DNA of 64,000 nucleotides from an uncultured bacterium (GCA_963813815.1 CAWFAD010000012.1:58142-122141), one strand, 5' to 3'; shown: positions 16,175 to 33,121, counted from the first letter of the stretch. Numbers and translations are program-made. Notes: a model not told the origin generated them from the sequence alone.

Positions 16175-16439
16175 CTGCTACCTCCTGTAGGGTTTCCGTT
16201 CGCTCGCAGGATTATCGTTTCAGTCGGATACATGGTCGCGCAAAACGCGGCACTAAACGCTTGAATTTATTGAGATACTCCGCAAATGTCAAGACAAAAT
16301 CGGTTTGGCGAATGGGGGTTCCGCAAACCTCTGGAAACGAATCCCCAGCCGGTATATACTCTCACACTGCGGCGTTCGAGCGGCCCGTACCGGGCATGCA
16401 ACGCCCTCCGCGAAACGGGACGCCGCGCCGCGAACGACC

Positions 16440-18934
16440 ATGCCGAAAAAGAGCGCATTACGCCTTCCGCTCGCGGCCGCGATCCGGCCCTGCGCCGCCG
16501 TCGCCGCTCTGGCCATCGCCGCCGCGCCGGGGCCGCTTTTCGCCGTGGGCCACGCGCGGGATATCCGTTTCACGCAGATCTCCATCGAACAGGGGCTCTC
16601 GCAGAGCATCGTCGAGTGCATCATCCAGGACCGGCGCGGATTCATATGGATGGCCACCGAGGACGGGCTCAACAAGTTCGACGGGTACGATTTCACGATT
16701 CTCCGCCACGATCCCGACGATCCGAACAGCCTCGTCTACAACCAGCTCCTCTCCCTCTGCGAGGACCGCGACGGCCGCATATGGATCGGAACGTTCCAGG
16801 GCGGCCTCAACCGCTACGATCCCGCGACGAGGCGCTTTACCCTCTACACGCACGCGATCGGCGATTCCACGAGCATCAGCCACAATTCGATAAACGCGAT
16901 CGTCGATACGAAGGCCGGGGACCTCTGGATCGGCACCGATAACGGGCTCAACCGCTACGAGCGCCGAACGGATTCCTTCACCCGCTTTTACGGCGACTCG
17001 ACCGGCGAGAACGGACCCGGCCACAGCGGAATCCGCTGCATCCTCGAGGATCGCGGCGGCGGGGTCTGGATCGGCACGAACGGCGGCGGCCTCAGCCGTT
17101 ACGACCCGGCGAGCGGCCGATGGAGGCGCTACGCGCACGATCCCGGCGATCCCGGAAGCCTCAGCCACAACACGGTGCGCGCGATCCGCGAGGACCATGA
17201 GGGCGCGCTCTGGGTCGGCACCGTCGGCGGCGGACTCAACCGGCTCGACCGCCGGACGGATCGCTTCACCCGCTACCGGCACGACCAGGACGATCCGAAG
17301 AGTCTCGCTCACGATCAGGTGTTCGATATCCTCGAGGACCGCACAGGCGCCCTTTGGATCGGCACCAACGGCGGAGGGCTCGACCTCTTCGATCGCGAGA
17401 CCGGCGGTTTCATTCACTATCGGAACGATCCGAACGATCCGAACAGCTTGAGCTTCGACGAGATTCACGACATCTTCGAGGATCGATCGGGGATTCTGTG
17501 GCTCGGCACCTACGGGGGCGGGGCGAACAAGTTCGACACGAAGCGAAAGAGCTTCGTTCTCTACCGCCCGAATCCGGCGGATCCGGCGAGCGGGCTCAGC
17601 GCCGAGATCGTGTGGTCGATCAGCGAGGACGAGCGGGGAATCCTGTGGATCGGCACGCACGGAGGCGGGCTCAACCGCCTCGACCGCGCAACCGGGCGCT
17701 ACCGGCACTACCGCCACGATCCGGGCGATCCAACGAGCCTGAGCTCCGACATTGTGCGGATCGTGTACCGGGACCGTTCCGGAGCCTTCTGGATCGGCAC
17801 GCACGGAGGCGGCCTCTGCAGGTTCGACCGCTCGAGCGGCCGCTTCACCGCCTATCGTCACGACCCATCCGATCCGTCGAGCCTGAGCCATGACGAGATC
17901 AGATCGATATACGAGGATCGGCAGGGCGCGCTCTGGCTCGGCACGAACGGCGGCGGTCTCAACCGCATGGACCGCGCGACCGGCGTTTTCCGCCGCTACC
18001 GGTCCGATCCCAATGATTCAACGAGCCTCAGCAACGATTTCGTGCGCGCGATCTACGAGGACGACTCGGGGGGCTTCTGGATCGGCACGCAGGGGGGAGG
18101 GCTCAACCGCCTCGACCGCTCGACGGGCGTATTCACGCCGTTCCGGGCGAACCGGCTCGACGCGGGCGGCATCAGCAACGATTACATCTTCTCCATCTTC
18201 GAGGATTCGCGGCGAGGTATGTGGATCGCCACCTGGGGCGGCGGGTTCAACAGGTTCGACCGGCAGACGGGGACCTTCAGGCACTATACGATGAAGGACG
18301 GCCTCCCCAACAACTCCGTCTACGGCATGCTCGAGGACGAGGACGGCAACCTCTGGCTCAGCACGAACCGCGGGATATCGAGATTCGACCCACGGACGGA
18401 AACCTTCAAGAACTACACCGACGAGGACGGGCTCCAGAGCAACGAGTTCAACGGAGGGGCGTTCTTCAAGAGCCCCGCCGGGGAGATGTTCTTCGGCGGG
18501 ATCCACGGCTTCAACTCTTTCTTTCCGGGGGACATCAGGGACAATTCCTTCATCCCTCCCGTCATCATCACCTCGCTCTCGGTGCTGAACCGGCCGGCGG
18601 AGCTCGACACGCCGATCACGGATATTCATACGCTCCGGCTCTCGTATCGCGATTACCTTTTTTCGTTCGAGTTCGCCGCGCTCGATTTCACGGCGCCGGA
18701 CAAGAATCAATACGCCTACCTGATGGAGGGCCTCGATCGCGATTGGATAGCGACCCCCGCGGGAAGGCGCCACGCGAGCTACACGACCCTGCCCCCGGCC
18801 GCTACGTCTTCAAGGTGAAGGGCTCGAACAACGACGGCGTATGGAACGAGACGCCCGCGACGATATCGATCGTCATCACGCCTCCCTACTGGCGAACGCT
18901 CTGGTTTCGAAAAATGATATACTTTTTTTGCTGA
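16440..18934 (+). pseudogene. Sensor protein with two-component-regulator propeller repeats, Y_Y_Y domain and TM helix. It is frameshifted near 18795, and the reading frame ends inside a foreign low-GC insertion
   Basis: From the internal Met MPKKSALRL there is a signal peptide. More than 12 repeats of the LWIGTxxGGLNRxDRxTGxFxxYRHDPxDPxSL unit follow. At a C5G homopolymer the frame of ORF 16305..18818 moves into ORF 18221..18934. That second frame carries the Y_Y_Y segment GRYVFKVKGSNNDGVWNE and a TM helix ITPPYWRTLWF. Confidence 0.6.
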
Positions 18935-19585
18935 AAGGCTGGCGCCGTTGTACCTGTACCTTCGGTACCATGTCGAATGTGGCATGCTGTTGGCCGGTTA
19001 CAGTGCTTCAAATTCAATGATGATTCATACCACGATCATCAGACATGACCGCGCTGCATAGCCTAGCCACACGTGGTCTGCAGCGGCGTAAGGTCACGCG
19101 AATCAAAAGCACAAAAAATGTGCAACTTTTAGCATCCAGAGGTTTGGATATTTCCACAGTACATAATTGAGGGGATCATCTTCATGCACCACTCTTGGCA
19201 GCCGCAAGGTCATCCCGGGTGGTATCACGCTGCAGTGTGGTACTTATATGATATTACTTTTTTTTGGCTGAAAGGCTGGCGCCGTTGTACCCCTGTACCC
19301 TTTCAGGTACCATGTCCGAATGTGGCATGCTGTTGGCCCGGTTAACCAGTGCTTCAAATTCAATGATGATTCATACCACGATCATCAGACATGACCGCGC
19401 TGCATAGCCTAGCCACACGTGGTGCTGCAGCGGCGTAAGGTCACGCGAATCAACTGCACAAAAAATGTGCAACTTTTGCAGCACCAGAGGTTTGGATATT
19501 TGAGTATAATTAATATTAGAATTAGATATTTTATATTTATATTTATAATTATATTTATCTATTTAATATATTTTTTTTTTTTATA
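18914..19585. repeat. Low-GC (about 40-45%) insertion containing an imperfect tandem duplication of a roughly 250 bp unit, plus an AT-rich low-complexity tail
   Basis: Unit 1 is about 18914..19155 and unit 2 about 19248..19504. Both begin ATGATAT(T)ACTTTTTTTGCTGAAAGGCTGGCGCCGTTGTACC and end GGTTTGGATATTT. They differ by scattered 1-2 nt indels. Each unit has a short hairpin GCACAAAAAATGTGC. The tail at 19505..19585 is TATAATTAATATTAGAATTAGATATTTTATATTTATATTTATAATTATATTTATCTATTTAATATATTTTTTTTTTTT. The flanking DNA is about 68% GC. Confidence 0.6.
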
Positions 19586-20394
19586 CCTCGCCGCCGGCTT
19601 CATGGTCGCCGGGGTCGCGACCGTCTTTTACCGTCGCCGGCTCACCGGCGTCCGGCTCGCCGCCGAGCTCAGGGCGGCGCACAAGGCGCAGATGTCGATC
19701 ATGCCCCAGTCGGATCCGGCGATCGAGGGGTTCGAAATCTCCGGAACCTGCATCCCCGCCTACGAGGTCGGAGGCGATTTCTACGATTACTTCTGGCTCG
19801 GGAAGGATCGCCGCCGCTTCGGCATCGCCGTCGGCGACGTCGCGGGGAAGGCCATGAACGCCGCGATGATATCGGTCATGTCGAGCGGCATGCTCTCCTC
19901 GAAGGTCGATAACGCCGTTTCGGTCGCCGGCCTCATGCGCGACCTCAACGGGCCGCTCTTCAACAAGACCGACGATTACGTGTTCACGGCGCTCTGTCTT
20001 CTCTCGCTCGACGCCGGAGCGAAATCTGGCGTCTTACAGCGTCGCCGGATTCAACAACCCCATTCTCAAATCCCGCGCGGGCGTGCGTTCGCTCCCCGGA
20101 CGGGGACCGCAGTTCCCCCTCGGGAGCCTCGAGAACATCGCCTACGAGGAGACGGCCCTGCGGCTCGAACGTGGAGACGTTCTCCTTGTGTTTTCGGACG
20201 GACTCATCGAGGAGCGGAACAAGGCGGGCGAATTCTTCGGCCTCGAGCGCCTGCGCGCGCTTCTCGAGACCCTCGACACGGCGGGCATGACGGCGCGCGG
20301 GATCAAGGAGTCGATCGTCTCGGAGGTGCTCGCCTTCGCCGGAAAGCGGCGCCATGACGACGACATCACGCTCGTCGTCGTGAAGGCCGCCTAA
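19586..20394 (+). pseudogene. PP2C-family (SpoIIE/RsbU-like) Ser/Thr phosphatase domain. The 5' end is truncated by the insertion and there is a +1 frameshift near 20030. It is probably the C-terminal part of the upstream sensor gene
   Basis: Frame of ORF 19419..20357 reads LAAGFMVAGVATVFYRRRL (a TM helix) then AELRAAHKAQMSIMPQSD ... GGDFYDYFWL ... GIAVGDVAGKAMNAAM. It then shifts into ORF 20083..20394, which reads SYSVAGFNNPILKSRAGVRSLPGRG ... VLLVFSDGLIEERN ... DDITLVVVKAA. Confidence 0.6.
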
Positions 20395-21158
20395 GACGCT
20401 TTCTTGATCGCGCGGACGATGACGCTTTCGGCGGGGCTCCGCGGAGCCCCCTGAAACGGATACGGAACCTCTTCGATCACCCGGACATCCTCGAATCCCG
20501 CCCCGCGGATGAGCGCGAGATAATCGTTCTTGAGCGACGCGTTCGCGATGCAGCCGACGAGAAGCTCTTCGGATTCGCGCAGCTCCTCCGGCAGTGGCTC
20601 GAGAAGAACGATATCGGAGACGACGAGACGTCCGCCGGGCCGGAGCACCCGCAGCGCTTCGTCGAAAACCCGCGCCTTGTCCGGCGAAAGATTCACGACG
20701 CAGTTCGAGATGACGATATCGACCGAGGCGTCCGCCGCGGGCAGGTTCTCGATCTCCCCGAGCCTGAACTCGACGTTGTCGAGGCGGCCGTCCGACGCCG
20801 CGCGACGGGCCCGGTCGATCATTTCGGGTGTCATATCGACGCCGATGACGCGGCCCGACGGACCCACCGCCTTCGCGGCTATGAAGCAGTCGAGCCCCGG
20901 CCCCGAGCCGAGGTCGAGGACGGTCTCCCCCTTCCGTGGCTTCGCGTGCGCGATCGGGTTGCCGCAGGAGAGACCGGCGATGGGGACTCCGGGCGCGCCC
21001 GCGAGATCCCCCGCCGCGTACCCCATCCCCTCGAAGAACGACTCCGCCGACTCGTTCCCTCCGCAGCACGAGCTACCGCCCGGCCTGCACGAGCAGGAGG
21101 TGCGGGCTATTTTCGCGTACCCTTCCCGAACCGTCTTTCTCATCCGATCCTTTTCCAT
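20391..21158 (-). CDS. arsM: Arsenite S-adenosylmethionine methyltransferase
   Basis: The 255 aa protein has VREGYAKIA, the conserved Cys residues (CSC ... CC ... GCG), the SAM-binding LDLGSGPGLDCFIAAKAVG motif and RLVVSDIVL. Confidence 0.8.
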   Translation of the reverse strand: MEKDRMRKTVREGYAKIARTSCSCRPGGSSCCGGNESAESFFEGMGYAAGDLAGAPGVPIAGLSCGNPIAHAKPRKGETVLDLGSGPGLDCFIAAKAVGPSGRVIGVDMTPEMIDRARRAASDGRLDNVEFRLGEIENLPAADASVDIVISNCVVNLSPDKARVFDEALRVLRPGGRLVVSDIVLLEPLPEELRESEELLVGCIANASLKNDYLALIRGAGFEDVRVIEEVPYPFQGAPRSPAESVIVRAIKKAS

Positions 21159-21198
21159 AGCGCCTCCTTGACGCCCCGCCGTGCGGCGCGCCGCCCGA

Positions 21199-21579
21199 CT
21201 ATGCGCCGCAACCGTGACCGTGTCCGTGGTGCCCGCACGAGTTGTCCGCGGTGAGCTCCTCGAGCGCTCCCCTCTTCAACGCCTCGACGTTGTCGCGGAC
21301 CGTGCCGGGCATCGAGCGGTACACGCGAATCCCCGCGTCGTTCAGCCGCTCGACCGCCCGCGCGCCGATCCCGCCAACGATGATCGCTTCGACATTCGCG
21401 CCTTCGAGCCCCTGCAGCGGCCGGCACGCGCCGTGGGCGTGGTGCTGGTCGCCGTTATCGACGACGCGCGACTCGCCGGAATCTCCGTCGACGATCAGGA
21501 ACCGCTCGGCCGAGCCGAAATGCCCGTAGGGCTCCCCTTCCATGCCGCGCACGTCGTTCACCGGAATGCAGATCCGCAT
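21199..21579 (-). CDS. Dinitrogenase FeMo-cofactor-binding domain protein (NifX/NafY/NifB-C-terminal-like) with a His/Cys-rich C-terminal tail
   Basis: The 126 aa protein reads MRICIPVNDVRG ... HFGSAERFLIVD ... AIIVGGIGARAVERLNDAGIRVY, matching the Nitro_FeMo-Co family. The C-terminus is CGHHGHGHGCGA. Confidence 0.7.
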   Translation of the reverse strand: MRICIPVNDVRGMEGEPYGHFGSAERFLIVDGDSGESRVVDNGDQHHAHGACRPLQGLEGANVEAIIVGGIGARAVERLNDAGIRVYRSMPGTVRDNVEALKRGALEELTADNSCGHHGHGHGCGA

Positions 21580-21589
21580 CGTGTTTCTC

Positions 21590-21967
21590 CTATTCGTTTT
21601 TGCCGAGGTCCAGCATTTCCTTCATCATGGGGCCGAGCATCGCTCGCACGCCGCCGGCGAGGCTCTCGGCCTTGACGAGCGTGAGGCAGCACGTCTTTCC
21701 GCGCCCCCCGCGCCCACCGTGCCCGCCGTGGAAGATGATGGCGAGCTTTTCCCCCGCGCCGATTCCGGCGCGCTCCCGCACGTCCTTCGGCAGGACGACT
21801 TGGCCGCGCTCGTCGACCGACACGACGGCCTCTATCCGGCAGCAGCCCCCGAGGGCTCCCCGGCCACCCCCGCGCATCCCTCTCTGCCCGCAGCAGCCGT
21901 CCCCGCCGATTCCAGATCGCTTTCCGCTCACGTAGCCTCCTTCATGTTCGGCGCACACGGACGCCAT
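21590..21967 (-). CDS. Small Cys/Gly-rich protein with a SpoVT/AbrB-like (MazE-like swapped-hairpin) DNA-binding segment. It may be a metal(loid)-responsive regulator
   Basis: The segment EAVVSVDERGQVVLPKDVRERAGIGAGEKLAIIF resembles AbrB/MazE domains. It is flanked by CC pairs (DGCCGQ, GGCCR, TCCL). The start is uncertain and may be the internal Met near 21877. The high-GC low-complexity N-terminus lowers confidence. Confidence 0.35.
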   Translation of the reverse strand: MASVCAEHEGGYVSGKRSGIGGDGCCGQRGMRGGGRGALGGCCRIEAVVSVDERGQVVLPKDVRERAGIGAGEKLAIIFHGGHGGRGGRGKTCCLTLVKAESLAGGVRAMLGPMMKEMLDLGKNE

Positions 21968-22279
21968 AAACGCACAATATTCAGAATATTATGATTTATC
22001 TGATTTGTCAATGGTCAATGATTGAGCGTTATCCCTCGCCGCGGGAATCATAACGCGGATGCGCGGCTCCGCCGTAGCTCTCTCAAAGGCATGGCATTCG
22101 ACGCAATTATTCCATCAATAGATATTTATGATGACTTTAACTCTAGCTTATGCTACCCTAGCTGTGACTGGGGGATTCTTAATTCATTTCTAAATGGGTC
22201 TAGCCGTATTGAGGGAACTCTTTCCGAAACCTCAATCCGCCTTCCGCGGGTTGAGTGGTTATCCAAGGGGGGATCGTTG

Positions 22280-25200
22280 ATGAAAAAGGTGTTAGCCCTC
22301 GTGATCGGCGTCGGCCTCATTGCCCTGCTCATCGGCTCGGTCGCAGCCCGCGAAATTGCGAATCCCGGCAAGCGTCCCGTGAGAGATTGGTCGAGCGATG
22401 AGTCGCTCGATCTCGTCGATCCGGGTCTGCGCGGCCTCTACGAGACCGCCGCCGCGGATACGTACTGCATGGTCTGGTACACCTTTGAGACCAACAACTG
22501 GATGGGTTGGACCCCGATCGACAACACGGCTCAGGTGGATACGTTTTTCCACGTGGACGACTTCGCCGGCCTCGGCACCTCCTGGACTCCGCTCGAGGGC
22601 TTGAAGTCGATGTGGTGCGGAGCCGAAGAGGACCTTGATGATCCGTACATGTGCTCGTGGGAGTACGCCCCTGGCTACGGCAACTACTGGAACCAGATGC
22701 TGACGAGCGATCCGTTCGCCTTCCAAGGCACGATCAGCTTCACGTATACGATCAGGTGGGATTCGGAGCCCGGATACGATTACACTCGGATCGAGTACGA
22801 CGCTGGCGGCGGCAGCTGGGTGGAGCTTGCTGAGTTCGACGACCTCGGCGACAGCACGGGAACCGTTCTCGTGTACACGACGCAGGCTCGGACGAAGCTT
22901 CGCTTCCACTTCACGGCCGACGGCGCCTGGAGCGATCAGGACGGCCTGTGGAACACGAACGGCGCGTGCGTCGTCGACGCTCTGCGCATTCAGGACGCCG
23001 CGACGCTCAACCTGTACGAGAACTTCGAGACCGCGGCCGTCGACGCGAAAGACGCGGGGATCTGGCACGCGCGTCCGGAGACTCCATACGGCAGCTTCGC
23101 CGGCCTGTACACCGGCCTGACCGACAAGGATCCGTGCGGCGACAACTTCGGCACGCAGGTCGTGTTCTTCGTCGGGTCGAGCGAGATCAGCACGAGCTAC
23201 CCGGGTCTCTTCGACACTCCGTTCTGCACGGGCCCCGGCGGCACCAGCGCACCGTGCCAGGATGAGGGCATCGTGTCTCCGATCATCGACATGACGATGT
23301 ACTCGACGCTCTGCAACAACGTTCAGGACGGCACCATCCCGTCTACCGATCTGAACCTGCTCGGAGGCGCCATTCTCCGGTTCACCTCGTACCGCGATCT
23401 GCCGCTCTCGAACCTCGTGTTCTACACGTGGTCCGTCCGGTCGATCATCGACGGGTGCCCCGGCCAGTGGGTGGACGATAACTTCGTTTACTACGGCGCC
23501 GACATGGATTACATCTATGGAGGAGCCGGCGACGTGAGCAAGTTCATCGGCGGCAACGATCCGGTGCAGATCAGAATCGGTTGCACGGACATGTGCGACG
23601 CCTGGTACAACACGTACGGCAACTGCGCGGCGCACACTCCGTCGCCCTGGGTCGACAACGTGCGCCTGTACCGGTACAAAACCGCCGGTCCGCAGTGGGG
23701 ATCGCGCGACCTGGATTTCTTCCAGGACAACTTCCCCGAGGCTGAGTACAACATCGAGAGCTACGTCCGCTGCGACGCGGCGAACGACATCTTCGCGGGC
23801 GACAACCCGGTCATCCATCCGGGCGACTCGCTCGTGGTCGATTGCACGTCGATTATCGCGGACGGGCTCAAAGAGGACAACACCTTCGGCGGCGCCTCCG
23901 TGTACATCAACGTGAGAGCCAGCTACATCGGCCCCGCGCCGACGAAACCGGCTCTCAGCGGCGCCGCGCTCGCCGGATCGGTTCTCGTCAACGACGATCC
24001 GGAGACGTACGTGAACTTCAACTACGTGAGCACGAGCGGTGCCTGGACGAAGATTCAGTGCGACACCGCCCGGACGGGCGCCGGCATCGTCGACGGCAAG
24101 TACATGGTCGACCTCAACGACGAGCTCTTCACCCGCGGCTACAAGATCGACTACTACTTCACGGCCACGGACAAGAAGAACGTCACTTCGGCGTACCCGC
24201 GCTACTCGCGCTCGGGCCCGCCGTACTTCGAGTGGACCTGTCTCCCGACGCTCAACACCGACGTGCTCTTCGTAGATGACGGCTACGTCGAGCTGTACTG
24301 GCTGCCGGTCTTCGACGCCGTGCTGGCTCTGCCGGACGCCAAGATCGACATCTACGACGTGAACGCCCCGAGCTCGGGCGTCTCCAACGGTCCGGGAAGC
24401 CGTGCGAAGAACTACCAGCTGAGAAGCACGTACGAGACGATCGTGTGGGATTGCGGCGCCTACGAGTCCGTGACGATCAGCGAGGGCACGGCCCACAGCG
24501 ACAAGTCGAACGACTGCCAGATGCTCGTCGACTGGATGAGCCTCTCGGAGCACCAGTGCGGCCTCTGGGTCTGCGGCGACGACATCGCCTTCGACCTGGA
24601 CGGCGCGGCCGGCGGCTCCGCGCTTCTCCTCATGAGCTCCTGGTGCGGCGTTGACTACGTCGCGACGAGCTACTTCGAAGAGACGGGCGGCCGGTTGAGC
24701 GGCGGCGTCGTGACGCCGCTTCTCACGGGCAACACCGACTCGGGCATCTTCGTTCACAGCGGCGTGCCCGACAAGCTGTACGCCTCCGGCGCCTGCTTCA
24801 TCATCAACCAGTTCGACTGCCTCGAGAAGACGGCCGGCGGCAAGTACGCTCTGAGCTACCCTGCGTATCTCGGAACGAACTACTACGGCGCCATCTCGAA
24901 GGCGACCACGAACACGAGCGGGTTCCCGGTCCGCACCATGTGGTTCGGATTCAGCTACGCGTTTGTTCGTGACGACGTCAACACGGCTCCGATGGACAAG
25001 TTCGAGATCGCGAACGACGTTCTCGTCTGGATGCAGAACGAGACGAACCTCGTGATTTCGGGCAACGAGACTCCGTCGGCCTACGCGCTCGCGCAGAACT
25101 TCCCGAACCCCTTCAACCCGTCGACGACCATCCGGATCGACATGCGGGAGAAGGGCTTTGTGACGTTGAAGATCTACAACGTCGCCGGGCAGCTCGTGCG

Positions 25201-25382: not shown

Positions 25383-25415
25383 AAAACGGCAGCCCATTCA
25401 CTGGGCTGCCGTTTT
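25383..25415. terminator. Bidirectional rho-independent terminator hairpin between the convergent T9SS cargo gene and the kinase gene
   Basis: AAAACGGCAGCCC-attcact-GGGCTGCCGTTTT is a perfect 13 bp stem flanked by A and T runs. It overlaps the last codons of the kinase at 25398. Confidence 0.5.
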
Positions 25416-27773
25416 CACATCCGCTTCTGCTCCGGGGAAACCGATGCGGCTCAAAATCTCCCACCAGCGCGGATCGGAACGCAGGCTGTCGAAGTACGGC
25501 TCGCTGTTCATGGACATTATTTGTATTGAGCGCGCCTGCAACGACTTTCTCAGGCAGGCAAATGCATTATCCCTATCGCCGAGCCCTGCGTACACCATGG
25601 CGGCTCCGTAAGGGTCGACGAACGCCTCCGCGGACTCCTTCTCGTACTCACGGAGCTCACGGCGCGCGATCTCGCGCTTCCCGGCGACGGCGTACACGAA
25701 TCCCGTCTGGCCGTCGAAACGGCCGGAGTATTTCGTCTCCAGAGTGTCGCATTGGGCCAATGCCTCGTCGAACTTTCCCTGCGCCGCAAGGCTCGTGGCG
25801 AGAAATATTCGCGAGACGTCGGCCAGCGTCGCCTTCGGCTCCATGGCGATATGCCGCCGCAGAGTGGCGTTGGCGTCGTCGTATCGTTTCGCATAAAAAT
25901 ACGTCCATCCGAGAAAGCTGATCGAATAGGCGGAAGATGCGTCGAGCTCGCACTGACGCTGCGCGAGATCGAGAGCCTCGTCGGTTCTCAACGCGGCCGC
26001 GAGATAGAGGATATAGTTTTTGAGCACCGGGATACTGCTTGGATTGAGCTCCAGGGCCCGTTTGTATTCGGCGTCCGCCGTCGACCAATTCCATTCGAAG
26101 AGGAATTTCGCGAGGGCGAGCGCCCCATGCGCTTCCGCGGACCGCCCGTCGAGCTGCACCGCTTTCTCCGCCGCGCGCAGGGCGTCGGTCGCGATCTCCC
26201 CCGGCGCGGCCTGTCCGTAGACGCATAGCATGCTGAGCGCATCGGCAAGCCCGGCGTTCGCGGGAGCGAAAGCAGGATCTATCTCGATTGCCCGTTGAAA
26301 CAGATCCGCGGCGGCGCGGTTCTTGGCACCGAGCAGCTCCGCGATTCCCCTCAAGTAAGCTTCCATGGCCTCGGGATCGGAGGATCCGACGCCTGCAAGA
26401 ATTTGCCGCTGCTCCGGCGTGAGCTTCGCCTTGATCTCGCGGGCGATCGATTCGGCTATTTCGTTCATCACGATCAGCGCGTCCTGCAGATCCCGGCGAT
26501 AGCTGTTCTGCCAGATCACCCGGTCCCGTTGAGCGCTGTAGAGCTTCGCCGTTATGACCATCCTCCTTCCATCGACGGTCAGCTCCGCCTCGACGAGTCC
26601 CTTCGCTTTGCTTTTTCTGCCGATTTCCTTGAGAGACTCGGCGCTTGCTTCGAATCGCCTCATGGTTCGATTCGAAATGACATTTACGCCGATCGATCCG
26701 AGGCTCACCGCGAGGCGATCGGTGAGACTGGCAGCCAGAAACGCCTTGTCGGGATCCTCCGAGCGATACTCGATGGGCAGCACGCCGATCGAATCTATCC
26801 TTTCGACCTTCGGGGCGAGGAGCGCGAGGCTACCCACTATGATCCCCGAGATGACAACCGCAGCCGCCGCGATGACCGCCGCGCGCTGCCAGGGACGGGC
26901 GCGGCGCCAGACTCGCTTGAGCCCTTTCGCGGGCGCAGCCTTCCCGGCGGGAAGCGCCTCCCGGTCTTTGGCCAGCGCATCGAGGTCGGCAACGAGCTCC
27001 TCCGCCTTCTGATACCTCCGCGCCGGGTCCCTCGCCAGCGCCTTGGCGACGATCCCATCGAGACCGGCGGGGATATCTCCGCCCTCTTTCGCAAGCGACG
27101 GCGCATCCTCGTTCAGAATCGAATACAGCAGCGCCGCTTCGTAGTCCGCCCCAAACGGCATCCGCCCCGACACCATCTCGTACAGCACCACGCCCAACGC
27201 CCAGATGTCGCTTCGATGATCCGCCTCCCTCCCCTGCACCTGCTCCGGCGACATATAGGCCACCGTCCCCATCGTCGTCCCCGTCCGCGTGAGCTTCGTC
27301 GCGCCCGAGACCTTCGCCAAACCAAAGTCCATGAGCATCGGCCTGCCCTCGGCCGTCAGCATCACGTTCGCGGGCTTGATGTCTCGGTGAACGATGCCTT
27401 TGGCGTGGGCAGCGGCGAGGCCATCCCCGATCTGCCGGGCGATCGAGAGCGCCTCATCGAGGGGGAGCGCGCCTTCACCGATACGATCCTTGAGGCTCCG
27501 CCCCTCGATGTGAGCCATAGCAATGAATGTCCGGCCTTCCGCCTCGGCGATCTCGTAGACGGGGCAAATGTTGGGGTGAAGGAGCGCCGCGGCCGCCCGG
27601 GCCTCGTGCACGAGCCGGGCGCGGTCTTCATCGCGAGCTATAGAGTCAGGAGGAAGAAACTTGAGCGCCACGGTCCGGCCGAGGGTGAGATCTTCCGCCC
27701 GATAGACCACGCCCATCCCCCCCTCGCCGAGCTTCGAGAGAACGCGATAGTGTCCTATGGTCCGCCCGATCAT
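25398..27773 (-). CDS. Ser/Thr protein kinase with a TM segment and C-terminal TPR repeats (paralogue 1 of 3)
   Basis: The 791 aa protein begins MIGRTIGHYRVLSKLGEGGMGVVYRAEDLTLGRTVALK and carries HRDIKPANVML, DFGLAK and GTVAYMSPEQ. It has a TM helix AAVIAAAAVVISGIIVGSLALLA and a TPR-like C-terminal half. Confidence 0.85.
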   Translation of the reverse strand: MIGRTIGHYRVLSKLGEGGMGVVYRAEDLTLGRTVALKFLPPDSIARDEDRARLVHEARAAAALLHPNICPVYEIAEAEGRTFIAMAHIEGRSLKDRIGEGALPLDEALSIARQIGDGLAAAHAKGIVHRDIKPANVMLTAEGRPMLMDFGLAKVSGATKLTRTGTTMGTVAYMSPEQVQGREADHRSDIWALGVVLYEMVSGRMPFGADYEAALLYSILNEDAPSLAKEGGDIPAGLDGIVAKALARDPARRYQKAEELVADLDALAKDREALPAGKAAPAKGLKRVWRRARPWQRAAVIAAAAVVISGIIVGSLALLAPKVERIDSIGVLPIEYRSEDPDKAFLAASLTDRLAVSLGSIGVNVISNRTMRRFEASAESLKEIGRKSKAKGLVEAELTVDGRRMVITAKLYSAQRDRVIWQNSYRRDLQDALIVMNEIAESIAREIKAKLTPEQRQILAGVGSSDPEAMEAYLRGIAELLGAKNRAAADLFQRAIEIDPAFAPANAGLADALSMLCVYGQAAPGEIATDALRAAEKAVQLDGRSAEAHGALALAKFLFEWNWSTADAEYKRALELNPSSIPVLKNYILYLAAALRTDEALDLAQRQCELDASSAYSISFLGWTYFYAKRYDDANATLRRHIAMEPKATLADVSRIFLATSLAAQGKFDEALAQCDTLETKYSGRFDGQTGFVYAVAGKREIARRELREYEKESAEAFVDPYGAAMVYAGLGDRDNAFACLRKSLQARSIQIMSMNSEPYFDSLRSDPRWWEILSRIGFPGAEADVKTAAQ

Positions 27774-27809: not shown

Positions 27810-30236
27810 CTACTGTTCCATAATGCCGGCTCTCGCCAGCAACCCTTTGTAGCGCGGATCTCTTTTGAGGAAGACGAGCCAGGGCGTATTGATTCGCCTC
27901 GCAAGATCACGAGGACGATCTGCGTATTCTATCTCGAGAGATGTATACGCTTCAGTGATCCTTCCGAGACAGCAATATGCGAATGCCTTTTTGCCGGCAA
28001 CCTTCTCATGGGCGAGCGCCGATTCTACGTGCGCTCCCTCGCCGAGCCAATAGGAGGCGGCAGCGAGCGTCGATGGACTCCAGTAGCCTCGCGGCGCCAG
28101 AGCGACCACCTCGCGGAAGCATTTCCTCGCCTGGACCGTATCGCCGACATTCACGTACCAGGCTGCCAGAAGGGCCCTGTGATTTTCGTTTACTGCGGCC
28201 GCTATCTCAACATCTCTGAGAGCCTCGCGATACCTGCCTCTTGTCGCGTACACCGAGCTCCGATAGAGGCGGCTGTACACCTCGGCGCTGTCTTCCGCGA
28301 TCGCCCGGGTCAGGTAGACGATCGCGCTGTCCATCATGAAGCAATCGAGAAATATGATCCCGACGCCGCCCGCATACCCGGTGTTCAAGGGATCAAGCAT
28401 CTGCGCGAGCTTCGCTTCGCTCACCGCCTTGTCGCAATCGCCCTCCATCGAGAGGAAAAACGCATAGCTGTTGTGAAACGCCGCCAGGTTCGGATCGAGA
28501 GCGAACGTCCGCTGGAAAAGCTCTTCCGCTGCCGCGGAATCGGCCTCGAAGGAATACTTGTAATCGGCGAGAGCTCCGAGCGCCTCGGGCAGGTTCGGAT
28601 CGAGCGCGAGCGCGCGGTCGATGTTGAGCTTCGCCTTGGGAACGGCCTCCTCGGCCGGGAGGATATCAACCCAGGCATAGACGCTGTAGGCGAATGCGAG
28701 CCCGGCATATGCCTCGGCGAACGTGGAATCGATCGCGACCGCTCTTTCGAGATACTCTATCGCCTTCGATGCACTGTCGACATCCGTCCTGGAACGATAA
28801 CCCATTCCCAACAGGTAGGCTTGCATGGCTTTGGGATTCACGGGGCGCCTCGCCGCAAGCGATGCCCGGCTTCCCGCTCGCATCTCGACGCCAAGCGCAG
28901 TCGCCACCTCACGCGCCACTTCATCGAGACGCTGGTGCAGATTTTGCATGTCACAGCTGAGGGTGCGAGCGTAAAGCTGCCTATCCTTCGCTGCTTCGTA
29001 AACCTGGATGCTCAGCCGCACGGCGTTCCCCGAAAATATGCACGAGCCCGTGATCAACGCTCTTGCATCCACCTTCCGGGAAATCTTGTCCATCGGCAGG
29101 TCGCTCCCCTTGAATTCCATCATCGTCTGCGGTGATCGAATCTGAACTCCTTCGAGGGATCCGAGCGCGCCTGAGAGAACGATTTCGAGCCCATTGATCA
29201 TTTCATCCTTCGATAAATCTCCCGTGAGGTTCTTGAGGGGCAGGATGCCGATCGAGTCGATCGACTCCGCCCCCGGCGATGATATCTTCATAATCCCGAA
29301 GGCGAGGGCCCCCGCGACGATGCAGAGCGCGCCGATAACGGCCGCCCTCTGCCATGGCCGCGACCGGCGCCAGACTCGCTTGAGCCCTTTCGCGGGCGCA
29401 GCCTTCCCGGCGGGAAGCGCCTCCCGGTCTTTGGCCAGCGCATCGAGATCCGCAACAAGCTCCTCCGCCTTCTGATACCTCCGCACCGGGTCCTTCGCGA
29501 GCGCCTTGGCGATGATCCCATCGAGGCCGGCAGGAATGTCTCCGCCCTCCACCGCAAGCGGCTCCGGATCCTCGTTCAATATCGAATACAGCAGCGCCGC
29601 CTCGTAGTCCGCCCCGAACGGCATCCGCCCCGACACCATCTCGTACAGCGCCACGCCCAACGCCCAGATGTCGCTTCGATGATCCGCCTCCCTCCCCTGT
29701 ACCTGCTCCGGCGACATATAGGCCACCGTCCCCATCGTCGTCCCCGTCCGCGTGAGCTTCGTCGCTCCGGAGACCTTCGCCAAACCGAAGTCCATGAGCA
29801 TCGGCCGGCCATCGGCCGTCAGCATCACGTTCGCAGGCTTGATGTCGCGGTGCACGATCCCCTTGGCGTGGGCGGCGGCGAGCGCGTCGGCCGTCTGTCG
29901 GGCGATCGAGAGTGCTTCGTCGAGCGGCATCGGACCCTCGGCGATGCGATCCTTGAGGCTCCGCCCCTCGATGTGGGCCATCGAAATGAACGTGCGCCCA
30001 TCCGCTTCAGCTATCTCGTGAATCGGGCAGATGTTCGGATGAAGAAGCGCCGCGGCGGCCCTCGCCTCGTGCACGAGGCGGGCGCGGTCTTCCTCTCGGG
30101 CCACCGAATCAGGCGGGAGAAACTTGAGCGCCACGGTCCGACCGAGGGTGAGGTCCTCGGCCCGGTAGACCACGCCCATCCCCCCCTCGCCGAGCTTCGA
30201 GAGAATGCGATAGTGGGAGATCTTCTGTCCGATCAT
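27810..30236 (-). CDS. Ser/Thr protein kinase with TM segment and TPR repeats (paralogue 2 of 3)
   Basis: From the internal Met MIGQKISHYRILSKLGEGGMGVVYRAEDLTLGRTVALKFLPPDSVAREEDRARLVHE. The kinase domain is almost identical to paralogues 1 and 3 for about 300 aa. The C-terminal TPR region is divergent. Confidence 0.85.
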   Translation of the reverse strand: MIGQKISHYRILSKLGEGGMGVVYRAEDLTLGRTVALKFLPPDSVAREEDRARLVHEARAAAALLHPNICPIHEIAEADGRTFISMAHIEGRSLKDRIAEGPMPLDEALSIARQTADALAAAHAKGIVHRDIKPANVMLTADGRPMLMDFGLAKVSGATKLTRTGTTMGTVAYMSPEQVQGREADHRSDIWALGVALYEMVSGRMPFGADYEAALLYSILNEDPEPLAVEGGDIPAGLDGIIAKALAKDPVRRYQKAEELVADLDALAKDREALPAGKAAPAKGLKRVWRRSRPWQRAAVIGALCIVAGALAFGIMKISSPGAESIDSIGILPLKNLTGDLSKDEMINGLEIVLSGALGSLEGVQIRSPQTMMEFKGSDLPMDKISRKVDARALITGSCIFSGNAVRLSIQVYEAAKDRQLYARTLSCDMQNLHQRLDEVAREVATALGVEMRAGSRASLAARRPVNPKAMQAYLLGMGYRSRTDVDSASKAIEYLERAVAIDSTFAEAYAGLAFAYSVYAWVDILPAEEAVPKAKLNIDRALALDPNLPEALGALADYKYSFEADSAAAEELFQRTFALDPNLAAFHNSYAFFLSMEGDCDKAVSEAKLAQMLDPLNTGYAGGVGIIFLDCFMMDSAIVYLTRAIAEDSAEVYSRLYRSSVYATRGRYREALRDVEIAAAVNENHRALLAAWYVNVGDTVQARKCFREVVALAPRGYWSPSTLAAASYWLGEGAHVESALAHEKVAGKKAFAYCCLGRITEAYTSLEIEYADRPRDLARRINTPWLVFLKRDPRYKGLLARAGIMEQ

Positions 30237-30247
30237 TCCAAGCGCCT

Positions 30248-33121
30248 TTAGAGCTCGGCCACCCTCTTCTTCGCATCGATGAGCTGCGGCCGGTCCCCAT
30301 CCGCTTCGGACCACATCTCGAGGAACCTGGCGTATTCCTTTTTCGCCTCCGCCGGACGTTTCATCTCTTCGTAGAGCTTGCCGAGCTCGTAGTGCGACAG
30401 AGCGTGCCCGCCGTAGATCCGCAACAATTCCTTGTGCACTTTCGCGGCCTCATCGAAACGTCTCTGCATCGCGTAAACGCGCGCCCGCGCGGTTCGGTAA
30501 TCGATATCGATGTATCCTCCGAATGGAATGCCTCCCCGCTGAAGCTGGTCGAGGAACTTTAGGGCTGTTTTAGGATCGTGGTCCGCCAGCGCGGCGTAGG
30601 CCTCGATCTCGAGCGCATCGTATTGAGCAATTCCACCTTGTTTGCCGGTTTGGCCGGCGAGATTTTTCGCCGCCTCTCGCGCTCCCTTCACATCGCCGAG
30701 CATGGCCAGAGCCCTGCCGAGTGGCCGAGGGTAATCGTTCATCGTGTCGGACGACGCCCATTGCCGATACAGGTCGCAAACCTCCTGAGGCCGCTCCATG
30801 GCGATCAGCATGCGAAACTCGGGCATGTCCATATCGGGCAAAACGGTGTATTCCCGAATCAAGTCGCGGGCCTTTCGATATTGGCCCTTTTCAACGTAAA
30901 GGGACGCGAGACACATATCGAAAGGACTCAGAACGATCAGTTCCCATCGTCTGCGCGGACCAATATTGCTCTGGCCGAGGATCTCTTCGAGAATATGGAT
31001 TGCTTCAGCTACGTCGCCTCGCTGATACGCGCAGTAGCTCAAAACCGCACGGTTCCACTTGGGATCCAGCTCCAGGGCCTTTTGAAACGCCGCTTCTGCG
31101 CTATCCGGCTTCCCGAGGGCGAGATATCTACGCCCCAGCTCATCCCAGTTATTCGGAACTTCCGGATGTCGTTCCGCCAGCAATCGCGTCGCCCGTAGCG
31201 CTTCCTCCGTTCGCCCCATGCACACAAGCGAAGATACGTACATAGGACCTCCGAAAATCGGATCATCCGGATACAGGCGCAATCCCGTTTCGCAAACCGC
31301 CAGCGCTTCGCCGAATTCCCAAACCATAAACATGTCTGTGAACATATCCCGCATGACTTGGCGATAATCAGGCCAACGAGCGAGAAGCCTCCGGTACGCT
31401 GCAATAATGGCCGTATGCGAGGTCTCGCGCCAGGCTTCCAGCCTCATCCGATCCTTCACGCCAAGATTTTCCCTCAGCATCCACGCTTTATCCGAATATT
31501 CCTTGGACTTTCCCCTTGTGGTGGGCGAAATACCCCCGAACATTTGGTAGGCGTTTGCGAGCTCCATATATGCCAGGGCAAACGTCGAATCCTCTGTGAC
31601 AGCTTTCTCCAACTCAGCGATCGCATCATCTCCACGGTACTCTTCGCACGCGAGCAAACCAGATATATAGTGCTGGTAGGCTCTCAGAGAATTAGTCGTG
31701 ATACTCTCCACCGGCTTCGGCGCGATGGTCGCCTTGACCCCGCAGGCGCTCGCAATCCGCGGAATCGCCTTCGCGATGATCTCATCCGCTATACCCTGAA
31801 GTCCCGATCCCTCCGCATCTCCCGCGCCGACGTTCTGCCCGTTTCGTACATCGACCAGCCTCCAGCTCACGATTCGATTCGGTCCCGTCCGCCCGATCTT
31901 GGCAACGAGGAAGAGCGTCGCCTTGACCTGCCGGGCGAGGTCGAATATCTGGCTGTCATCGATCGCGCCCCGGGGGGAGCCGTAGAGACGGCGGCGAAAA
32001 TCGTGGATCAGCTCGGAGCTTATCACCCGGATGACATCCGCCTCCGTAAGACTGGTGCTCACGAGCTCGGTGAGGGCCGCCGATGTGATGAGACTGTCGG
32101 GAGCATCGATGTCCCGAAAATCCATTACCGCTATCGAAAACGAAGCGGCTTCGGGCTCCCCGTGCCGCATCTGGACTATCGACAGTGCGGCAATGGCTCC
32201 CATGACTATGAGCGATGCGACCGCCGCCGCGCGCTGCCAGGGCCGGGCGCGGCGCCAGACCCGCTTGAGCCCCTTCGCGGGGATCGCCTTGCCCGCGGGC
32301 AGCGCTTCACTGTCCCGCGCCAGGGCCTCAAGATCCGCAACAAGCTCCTCGGCCTTCTGGTATCTCCTCGCCGGATCCTTCGCCAATGCCTTCGCGATGA
32401 TCCCGTCAAGGCCGGCGGGGATGTCGCTCCCCTCTCCCGCAAGGGGCGCGGGATCTTCGTTCAATATCGAGTACAGCAGCGCCGCCTCGTAGTCCGCCCC
32501 GAACGGCAGCTTCCCCGACGTCATCTCGTAGAGCACCACGCCCAACGCCCAGATGTCGCTCCGGTGATCCGCCTCCCTCCCCTGCACCTGCTCCGGCGAC
32601 ATGTACGCCACCGTCCCCATCGTCGTCCCCGTGCGCGTCAGCTTCGTCGTCCCCGAGACCTTCGCCAGCCCGAAGTCCATCAGCATCGGTCGGCCGTCGG
32701 TCGTGAGCATGACGTTGGCGGGCTTTATATCCCGGTGGATGATCCCCTTGGCGTGGGCGGCAGCCAGACCATCTCCTATCTGACGAGCGATCGAGAGCGC
32801 CCCATCCAGGGGAAGCGGTCCCTCTGCGACGCGATCCTTGAGGCTCCGCCCCTCGATGTGGGCCATCGATATGAACGTGCGGCCCTCGGCTTCAGCGATC
32901 TCGTAGATGGGGCAAATGTTGGGGTGAAGGAGCGCCGCGGCCGCCCGGGCCTCGTGCACGAGCCGGGCGCGGTCTTCCTCGCAAGCCACGGAGTCGGGCG
33001 GAAGGAACTTCAGCGCCACCGTCCGGCCGAGGGTGAGATCCTCGGCCCGATAGACCACACCCATCCCCCCCTCGCCGAGCTTCGAGAGAATGCGGTAGTG
33101 GGAAATCGTATTTCCTATCAT
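30248..33121 (-). CDS. Ser/Thr protein kinase with TM segment and TPR repeats (paralogue 3 of 3)
   Basis: From the internal Met MIGNTISHYRILSKLGEGGMGVVYRAEDL ..., giving 957 aa. An alternative start is at 33151. The kinase domain is near-identical to the other two. The C-terminal TPR/sensor region is longer and divergent. Confidence 0.85.
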   Translation of the reverse strand: MIGNTISHYRILSKLGEGGMGVVYRAEDLTLGRTVALKFLPPDSVACEEDRARLVHEARAAAALLHPNICPIYEIAEAEGRTFISMAHIEGRSLKDRVAEGPLPLDGALSIARQIGDGLAAAHAKGIIHRDIKPANVMLTTDGRPMLMDFGLAKVSGTTKLTRTGTTMGTVAYMSPEQVQGREADHRSDIWALGVVLYEMTSGKLPFGADYEAALLYSILNEDPAPLAGEGSDIPAGLDGIIAKALAKDPARRYQKAEELVADLEALARDSEALPAGKAIPAKGLKRVWRRARPWQRAAAVASLIVMGAIAALSIVQMRHGEPEAASFSIAVMDFRDIDAPDSLITSAALTELVSTSLTEADVIRVISSELIHDFRRRLYGSPRGAIDDSQIFDLARQVKATLFLVAKIGRTGPNRIVSWRLVDVRNGQNVGAGDAEGSGLQGIADEIIAKAIPRIASACGVKATIAPKPVESITTNSLRAYQHYISGLLACEEYRGDDAIAELEKAVTEDSTFALAYMELANAYQMFGGISPTTRGKSKEYSDKAWMLRENLGVKDRMRLEAWRETSHTAIIAAYRRLLARWPDYRQVMRDMFTDMFMVWEFGEALAVCETGLRLYPDDPIFGGPMYVSSLVCMGRTEEALRATRLLAERHPEVPNNWDELGRRYLALGKPDSAEAAFQKALELDPKWNRAVLSYCAYQRGDVAEAIHILEEILGQSNIGPRRRWELIVLSPFDMCLASLYVEKGQYRKARDLIREYTVLPDMDMPEFRMLIAMERPQEVCDLYRQWASSDTMNDYPRPLGRALAMLGDVKGAREAAKNLAGQTGKQGGIAQYDALEIEAYAALADHDPKTALKFLDQLQRGGIPFGGYIDIDYRTARARVYAMQRRFDEAAKVHKELLRIYGGHALSHYELGKLYEEMKRPAEAKKEYARFLEMWSEADGDRPQLIDAKKRVAEL

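Follow-up and report, generated by a model that had tools for sequence, protein, structure and literature searches.

The 64-kb window analysed here, a stretch of 64,000 nucleotides from an uncultured bacterium (GCA_963813815.1 CAWFAD010000012.1:58142-122141), holds three minus-strand open reading frames (ORFs) arranged in one compact unit with one promoter, in the order AbrB-like gene, NifX-like gene and arsM. The first gene codes for a member of the HgcC family, which is named for its association with the mercury methylation proteins HgcA and HgcB (hgcAB genes), and its product is very probably a regulator of arsM that does not belong to the ArsR type. An earlier note, made from the sequence alone, had described the three ORFs, three vicinal cysteine pairs (CC) in the first protein, a His/Cys-rich tail on the second and arsM itself, and all of these were confirmed. 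The coding features of the unit, with positions counted from the first nucleotide of the window, are as follows.

21590..21931 (probable; longest ORF 21590..21967, from an ATG at 21967), minus strand: AbrB-like gene of the HgcC family, 113 amino acids (aa) in the probable form and 125 aa in the longest

21936..21943, minus strand: Shine-Dalgarno sequence GAAGGAGG of the first gene, aligned with AAGGAGG and the start codon in the related loci L001, L085 and L086

21199..21579, minus strand: NifX/MTH1175-like gene, 126 aa, Nitro_FeMo-Co domain, tail CGHHGHGHGCGA

20391..21158, minus strand: arsM, 255 aa, short arsenite S-adenosylmethionine (SAM) methyltransferase

The gaps in the unit amount to 10 nt between the AbrB-like and NifX-like genes and 40 nt between the NifX-like gene and arsM, and both the NifX-like gene and arsM are preceded by a Shine-Dalgarno sequence of their own. 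Neither a promoter-like nor a terminator-like site was found between the three genes by consensus scanning and reading of the sequence. The interval 21159..21198, which had been put forward as a possible separate promoter of arsM, likewise gave no consensus match, although a weak or non-sigma-70 promoter may lie there. An Rfam scan of positions 18000-22500 found no RNA family, so that no riboswitch or leader is indicated in this region.

The arsM product is a predicted As(III) methyltransferase, which matches the arsenite methyltransferase model NF008823 with 301.3 bits (cut-off 263). In alignments with CrArsM (5evj) and CmArsM (4fr0) the As(III)-binding cysteines are kept, with C65 (CGNP), C152 (SNCV) and C202 (GCIA) of the window protein corresponding to C72, C174 and C224 of CmArsM. 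The protein also has an N-terminal Cys-rich segment comprising C22, C24, C31 and C32.

The HgcC-family protein and its cysteine pairs

The AbrB-like protein matches the NCBIfam equivalog model NF040962, "HgcAB-associated protein HgcC", over profile positions 1-70 of 70, with 97.9-98.2 bits (cut-off 70; the curated cut-offs were used). Lower-scoring matches above the cut-off were obtained with Pfam PF04014 (MazE_antitoxin/SpoVT-AbrB; 28.3 bits, cut-off 24.7, residues 48-78) and TIGR01439 (AbrB looped-hinge helix; 35.0 bits, cut-off 28.3). The similarity of the 21590..21967 ORF to the AbrB family, on which the earlier description of the protein depended, is thus significant, and the SpoVT_AbrB and Nitro_FeMo-Co domains proposed for the first two proteins both lie above their cut-offs. 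The looped-hinge hairpin reads VDERGQVVLPKDVRERAGI and is followed by a C-terminal helix.

Members of the HgcC-like family form a compact group. The protein gave 322 word-index matches and, among 1.84 billion representatives, 355 clusters at 50% identity (E <= 1e-10), all of 65-160 aa, while all 81 of the HgcC-like family members surveyed below match NF040962 with E <= 5e-20, at about the cut-off level or better. Family alignments of 34, 95 and 81 members gave an agreeing picture, in which residues D52, R54, G55, Q56, P60 and R64 of the AbrB-type recognition hairpin are invariant. A profile search of the Protein Data Bank (PDB) sequences with the family returned only relatives of AbrB and SpoVT. 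The AlphaFold2 (AF2) monomer model of the protein comprises a beta-hairpin, a helix (residues 61-67), two strands (75-81 and 92-99) and a C-terminal helix (100-120), with a hairpin-helix-hairpin topology ahead of this last helix, and its core (residues 45-120) is reasonably confident. The best Foldseek matches of this model are SpoVT and AbrB (probability 0.99 and 0.89), yet with weak E-values of 0.08-0.3, and further best PDB fold matches, again with weak E-values, are Sso7c4, C68 and MazE. By these comparisons the first gene product belongs to the HgcC family, proteins of about 90-115 aa of the AbrB/SpoVT type with a probable swapped hairpin and a predicted DNA-binding function.

Translation of the first gene most likely begins at the GTG codon at 21931 (V13 of the longest ORF), because the Shine-Dalgarno sequence GAAGGAGG precedes it and because it aligns with the start codons of the homologues. 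The resulting 113-aa form agrees in length with the closest homologues (101-114 aa) and keeps all three CC pairs. Public gene calls for this protein vary: that for the near-identical protein P0002 is 77 aa long, begins at V49 and drops two of the three CC pairs, and 125 aa are called for the same protein in other assemblies.

In the numbering of the 125-aa form the three vicinal pairs are C25C26, C42C43 and C93C94. A CC pair is found ahead of the hairpin in 74 of the 81 family members and after the hairpin in 78 of the 81, and an extra N-terminal CC occurs in 38 of the 81. In the family alignments C94 does not vary, and C42, C43 and C93 are near-invariant. Since the pairs are kept across the family, the Cys-rich part of the protein represents conserved coding sequence and not a GC artefact, as it might otherwise have been. 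In AfArsR, CgArsR and ArsD, As(III) is bound by vicinal cysteine pairs, and MerR binds Hg(II) through thiolates.

Partner genes and the repeat at the promoter

The neighbourhoods of hgcC-like genes were surveyed in species-representative genomes, using the best 80 of more than 546 loci. An arsM gene lies directly downstream on the same strand in 68 of these 80 loci, with a median gap of 15 nt, and hgcA-hgcB lies directly downstream in ten. Of the two loci left over, L021 ends at a contig edge and L080 contains neither arsM nor hgcAB. The sampled partners score above the curated cut-offs, with 328-368 bits for ArsM, 426-453 for HgcA and 108 for HgcB. The hosts are found among the Dehalococcoidia, the Syntrophaceae and other Deltaproteobacteria, the Aminicenantes, Actinomycetota, Nitrospirota and Krumholzibacteriota, as well as the Bathyarchaeota, Methanoregula, Methanothrix (M. 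harundinacea in L036), Methanoperedens (BLZ2 in L041), Thermoplasmatota and others. The placement of the window follows its relatives, which are labelled Krumholzibacteriota. No other conserved neighbour was observed in the 80 loci, where ArsC of the low molecular weight protein tyrosine phosphatase type occurs in seven, Acr3 in seven and ArsR in six (ArsR within 8 kb), and two further look-ups gave the same isolated two-gene unit amid unrelated genes. Neither an HgcA cap-helix nor an HgcB motif was found in any of the six frames of the 64-kb window. By its score the window protein belongs to HgcC, but its context is not the one that this name implies. The widespread module comprises two genes, an hgcC-like gene and arsM, of which the three-gene unit in the window is a variant specific to its lineage.

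The arsM-linked and hgcAB-linked proteins do not fall into separate groups. Mean identity is 0.61 among the former, 0.62 among the latter and 0.60 between the two, and a split into arsM-type and hgcAB-type subfamilies was rejected, as the groups are interleaved in identity clustering. A single cysteine or none at the first pair is found in four of the ten hgcAB-linked proteins (L062, L075, L055 and L058) and in three of the 68 arsM-linked ones (Fisher p=0.004, not corrected for phylogeny), with small numbers and some of the four loci being related, so that few independent events are involved. This difference hints at ligand-related tuning.

Two of the surveyed loci show peculiarities of their own. 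In L080 (L080:3355-6482) two genes on the opposite strand flank the hgcC-like gene. One is ArsR-like, with an ECCVCE motif; the product of the other has 633 aa, and its Cys motifs CPFC, CDLC and GPCR by eye resemble those of CO dehydrogenase or hybrid-cluster proteins. The TCAG/CTGA operator described below is kept upstream of the hgcC-like gene. L002 (L002:3949-5319), a relative of the window locus, is without the NifX-like gene and without the promoter/operator block, and its arsM ORF includes masked residues and runs on into sequence that is out of frame. These oddities probably reflect a low-quality contig of a metagenome-assembled genome rather than biology.

The promoter of the unit and the candidate operator that overlaps it consist of the following elements, to which a site from another lineage is added.

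22006..22011, minus strand: -35-like hexamer TTGACA, from a consensus scan, with TTGAC invariant in six related upstream regions

21983..21988, minus strand: -10-like hexamer TATTCT, from a consensus scan, inside an invariant ATTCTGA block

21976..22003, minus strand: candidate operator, with TCAG (22003-22000), TCAT (21994-21991), TTCTGA (21986-21981) and a palindrome (21990-21976)

Dehalococcoidia-type candidate operator site: TCAGTATATTCTGATTTTTCTGA

Read along the minus strand, TTGACA (22011-22006) is followed by aaTCAGataaaTCATaa and TATTCT (21988-21983), which runs straight into GAatatt; with a spacer of 17 nt, the two hexamers agree with the consensus at 10 of 12 positions. The palindrome AATATTC-T-GAATATT (21990-21976) overlaps the -10 hexamer. 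In six relatives from the lineage of the window, this promoter/operator block is the sole conserved island in otherwise diverged intergenic DNA, and the 64-kb window contains no second array like that at 21976-22003.

The same arrangement recurs across the family. Upstream of the hgcC-like gene, TCAG/CTGA cores spaced 8-10 bp apart are present in most of the 80 loci, usually reading TTCTGA/TCAGAA, with the oriented consensus wwAATCAGAAtAtt. These hexamers number 107 in 12.7 kb of upstream regions, compared with 10.9 +/- 3.1 (maximum 18) in dinucleotide-preserving shuffles, a 10-fold enrichment, and their density of 8.4 per kb contrasts with 0.43 per kb elsewhere in the loci; 61 of the 80 loci have at least one hexamer upstream, where about ten would be expected. 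Neighbouring cores most often stand 8-10 bp apart, and a second maximum of their spacing lies at 18-19 bp. Chains of at least three cores with 8-10 bp spacing were found 64 times in 927 kb, and 55 of these are located directly upstream of an hgcC-like gene; the chain in L077 is a 56th at such a promoter, missed in the count through an over-extended ORF start. The only other arrays within 8 kb on either side in the 80 loci resemble chance matches in coding sequence. Where a TTGAC -35 element is present, at 65 bacterial-type promoters, the cores concentrate at +25 to +49 from TTGAC, that is at the -10 element and transcription start, while in archaeal loci they abut or flank and follow the TATA box. 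The arrangement of the cores is alike in hgcAB-linked and arsM-linked loci. A multi-site operator with helical periodicity would fit binding by a tetrameric AbrB-like protein.

The NifX-like gene and the surrounding DNA

The NifX-like protein matches PF02579 (Nitro_FeMo-Co) with 78 bits (cut-off 26.3), and scores of 12 bits against NifB (cut-off 343) and 30 bits against MrpORP (cut-off 450) were obtained. Its closest solved relatives are TM1290, TM1816, PH0822, MTH1175 and ORP (profile E 1e-20 to 1e-9), and the neighbours of the gene in the window are not nif genes. The protein does not qualify as a functional NifX or NafY, which would be encoded with nif genes and bind FeMo-co. Residues C4, H20, H47, C52, C115 and H118 are invariant across the NifX-like family, and the C-x-x-H...C arrangement, with a tail rich in Cys and His, is general in it.

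The tail had led to the suggestion that this protein is a metallochaperone feeding ArsM. An As(III) metallochaperone dedicated to ArsM would agree with the position of the gene, which is co-oriented and packed between the regulator gene and arsM (10 and 40 nt) in an order conserved in the lineage down to about 51-56% identity, and with the invariant Cys and His residues and the soft-metal-type tail. An NifX-like gene between the hgcC-like gene and arsM is, however, restricted to the window, L001, L003, L004, L085, L086 and several contigs common to the match lists of the two proteins; of the 68 arsM-linked loci, 64 lack it. Within the NifX-like family itself, surveyed in 80 metagenomic loci, 77 members lie beside neither an hgcC-like gene nor arsM, and the tail motif is family-wide, with solved relatives that are either uncharacterised or bind Mo/Cu clusters (ORP). 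The chaperone proposal thus lacks support and is unlikely, and the NifX-like gene is a lineage-specific insertion in the unit.

A different set of neighbours is seen elsewhere in the NifX-like family. Directly upstream of the NifX-like gene, 39 of the 80 loci encode DUF134, which is predicted to bind DNA, and CGGC-domain proteins are encoded next to the gene in 20, while in five (L115, L118, L119, L130 and L131) the NifX-like domain is continuous with an N-terminal ArsR-type helix-turn-helix; in L118:3635-4369, for example, PF01022 and PF02579 lie in one ORF. In a Desulfuromonadales member the neighbours are a pyridine-nucleotide disulfide oxidoreductase and a sigma-54 activator. Since small DNA-binding proteins recur as partners, NifX-like proteins may be ligand-binding accessories of regulators, and a general role of the family as ligand-binding partner of such proteins is a matter of speculation.

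At its 3' end the unit meets, in convergent orientation, a SpoIIE-type gene on the plus strand that encodes a Reg_prop/Y_Y_Y/SpoIIE sensor phosphatase (16305-20394, with 18820-19480 the part of most note). This gene is split in the window into ORFs at 16305-18818, 18221-18934, 19419-20357 and 20083-20394, and it contains a low-GC insert with a tandem duplication of about 345 bp (18923-19130 and 19260-19477) whose segments include one of 77 nt at 100% identity and one of 53 nt at 96%. The same gene is intact in the syntenic locus L085 (1091 aa) and uninterrupted over at least 392 aa in a Logan assembly of the same locus. The broken gene could be a pseudogene, or result from a small mobile insertion or an assembly error. 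On the minus strand, two adjacent large ORFs (25398-27773 and 27810-30314) with near-identical stretches, e.g. at about 27007 and 29470, appear to be tandem paralogues; the first of the pair has a Ser/Thr-kinase-like N-terminus.

A proposed thiol-sensing repressor and its alternatives

The comparisons establish the family membership and the fold class, the conserved gene pairing, cysteine pairs and promoter repeat, and the compact layout of the unit. The DNA-binding fold, the invariant loop residues, the repeat at the promoter, the first position in the unit and the lack of an ArsR point to an autoregulated repressor that would occlude its promoter, and the vicinal cysteines flanking the hairpin are proposed as the obvious sensor. 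The two conserved targets of the family are limited to operons that methylate arsenic or mercury, which, together with the near-invariant vicinal cysteines, leads us to propose derepression by As(III) or methylarsenite (MAs(III)) and, in hosts of hgcAB, by Hg(II). It appears fairly probable, though by no means assured, that the first gene product is an autoregulated AbrB-type repressor with a thiol sensor, which takes the role of ArsR in the arsM unit. In such a mechanism an HgcC-like dimer or tetramer would bind the array of TCAG/CTGA cores, placed about one helical turn apart and overlapping the -10/start region of its own promoter (21976-22003 in the window, just downstream of TTGACA at 22006-22011), and would thereby repress the transcript of the hgcC-like gene, the NifX-like gene and arsM. 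A thiophilic ligand on the Cys pairs would free the protein from the DNA, and its release would switch on arsenite methylation; the likeliest ligand is As(III) or methylarsenite, with Hg(II) in its place in relatives linked to hgcAB. The NifX-like protein may be an accessory metal- or cluster-binding protein, recruited in one lineage only.

Several points weigh against the repressor model. DNA binding, the ligand and the direction of regulation are the parts that we infer, the cysteines could have a redox, Zn or Fe-S function rather than one in metal(loid) sensing, and another factor could recognise the repeat, as AbrB-type proteins often bind DNA loosely. One of the cores in the candidate operator of the window is degenerate (TCAT). 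The AF2 model depicts the monomer of an obligate swapped dimer, with a mean predicted local distance difference test score (pLDDT) of 66 and a disordered N-terminal region of 40 residues, and the ratio of 68:10 between arsM-linked and hgcAB-linked loci may be biased, the 80 loci being those most similar to the window protein.

Among the alternatives, the Cys-rich AbrB-like protein might chiefly be an ArsD-like metal(loid) chaperone that hands As(III) or Hg(II) to the methyltransferase, with the repeat bound by another factor. The three vicinal Cys pairs recall C12C13, C112C113 and C119C120 of ArsD, the hgcC-like gene is tightly coupled to the enzyme gene at the median gap given above, and ArsM itself bears an N-terminal Cys-rich segment. 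The family, inseparable by sequence, nevertheless precedes both ArsM, which is a SAM methyltransferase of the Rossmann fold, and HgcA, which is a corrinoid protein anchored in the membrane, and these two have no fold in common that could serve for docking; a chaperone would also leave unaccounted for the DNA-binding fold, the invariant recognition-loop residues and the family-wide repeat exactly at the promoter of the gene itself. The intermixing of arsM-linked and hgcAB-linked members and their common operator type favour one class of regulator for two structurally unrelated enzymes over an enzyme-specific chaperone, which is unlikely; a dual role as regulator and buffer is possible.

The protein may also be a DNA-binding regulator whose cysteines are redox-active or ligate Zn or an Fe-S cluster, with oxygen, the redox state or a methyl-cycle metabolite such as S-adenosylhomocysteine (SAH) as the signal. 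The occurrence of the family in anaerobic lineages (methanogens, Dehalococcoidia, Syntrophaceae and Aminicenantes) is in keeping with this, the four conserved cysteines per monomer could ligate a cluster, and the ArsR-like hgcAB regulator of strain ND132 likewise responds to SAH. Vicinal Cys pairs, however, offer poor Fe-S geometry and are classical ligands of As(III) and Hg(II), both conserved target operons, of which there are only two, serve to methylate thiophilic metal(loid)s, and the greater frequency of a single first-pair cysteine in hgcAB-linked members is a hint of ligand tuning, all of which make such a signal rather improbable. That the gene encodes an orphan antitoxin of the MazE/PrlF type or some generic AbrB-like protein, and lies beside arsM without functional meaning, as might be supposed from the name 'antitoxin PrlF' given to many members in KEGG and JGI and from the best Pfam match (MazE_antitoxin), is very hard to credit in view of the pairing with arsM or hgcAB in 78 of the 80 loci and in two domains of life, the specific family model and the conserved Cys pairs that classical antitoxins lack, and the antitoxin reading was rejected since no toxin gene is adjacent in the window and no recurrent toxin-like cluster occurs in the surveyed loci.

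The autoregulated repressor proposed here can be compared with several known systems. It resembles the ArsR/SmtB proteins, including the hgcAB regulator of P. mercurii ND132, as a small repressor for which autoregulation, a position as first gene and an operator over the promoter are proposed, and in having Cys thiolates as potential As(III) ligands, for which AfArsR and CgArsR likewise use vicinal pairs. A link between arsenic and hgcAB is common to the two types. It differs in fold, with a winged helix in ArsR and an AbrB swapped-hairpin barrel here, and in its operator, which is a 12-2-12 dyad in ArsR and an array of 4-bp cores at about 9-bp spacing in the HgcC-like family. None of the three proteins of the unit matches PF01022 (HTH_5). 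With AbrB, SpoVT, Abh, Sso7c4 and MazE it shares HMM and fold matches and the conserved GQ-V-LPK-R loop, but the HgcC-like proteins have flanking Cys pairs and a conserved C-terminal helix (LGPMMKE), and lack a toxin and a link to sporulation. ArsD, which was first described as a trans-acting repressor, is likewise a small protein with three vicinal Cys pairs in an arsenic operon, but its fold is of the thioredoxin type and the enzyme it serves is the ArsA ATPase, in contrast to the AbrB-like fold of HgcC-like proteins, and neither of the two small proteins of the unit matches an ArsD family in Pfam or NCBIfam. The NifX-like protein, for its part, shares the PF02579 match with MTH1175, TM1290, TM1816 and ORP, and TM1290 also ends in a His-rich tail; what sets it apart from the MTH1175/TM1290 group is its insertion, outside any nif context, in an arsM operon, which is rare for the family (3/80 loci).

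The HgcC family itself has been catalogued but is uncharacterised. The window gene resembles the HgcC of NF040962 in size, Cys pairs, first-gene position and full-profile score, but it precedes an NifX-like gene and arsM and not hgcAB, and the family name covers a minority of the contexts among the 80 loci. Zhang et al. (2023; PMC10349881), the one study of this family in the literature searched, reported that hgcA was immediately preceded by a prlF/mazE/abrB-like gene in 14 of 35 contigs, as well as in eight of 31 cultured methylators, mostly archaea, and proposed it as a putative regulator, discussed as a toxin-antitoxin component; the arsM linkage, the cysteines and the operator are unmentioned there. 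In ND132, hgcAB is under the control of an ArsR-like regulator that responds to arsenic and SAH (Gionfriddo et al.; 10.1101/2022.10.17.512643). The literature searched, with subscription journals mostly outside the search, contained no AbrB-type metal(loid) sensor, no link of AbrB-type proteins with arsM or arsenite-responsive repression, and nothing on the arsM link, Cys pairs or operator of HgcC.

Taken as a whole, the interpretation in the earlier note is partly supported. Its proposal of a non-ArsR regulator is well supported by the arsM partner in 68 of the 80 loci, the repeat over the promoter of the gene itself and the retention of the Cys pairs, while the chaperone half, given an insertion confined to one lineage, is not. 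A wider proposition, offered tentatively, is that the HgcC family constitutes a new class of metalloregulators, consisting of AbrB-fold repressors that would sense As(III), methylarsenite or Hg(II) through vicinal cysteines and control arsM in most hosts and hgcAB in others through an array of TCAG/CTGA cores conserved between anaerobic bacteria and archaea.

The control and purpose of hgcAB are open questions in mercury biogeochemistry, and the regulation of arsM in anaerobes is poorly known. One Cys-rich AbrB-type family with one operator type heads both arsM and hgcAB operons, with arsM far oftener the partner in the present survey, which provides an independent line between mercury methylation and arsenic metabolism. 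The name "HgcAB-associated protein", which is still spreading through annotations, is misleading, as arsM loci may pass for signs of mercury methylation in genome surveys. The regulator and its operator form a testable pair for electrophoretic mobility shift assays (EMSA), reporters and biosensors. Should As(III) or Hg(II) prove to be the ligand, the known metalloregulator families would gain a new fold, and, if the proposed mechanism is true, the unexplained native role and regulation of hgcAB would be tied to the circuitry of arsenic detoxification.

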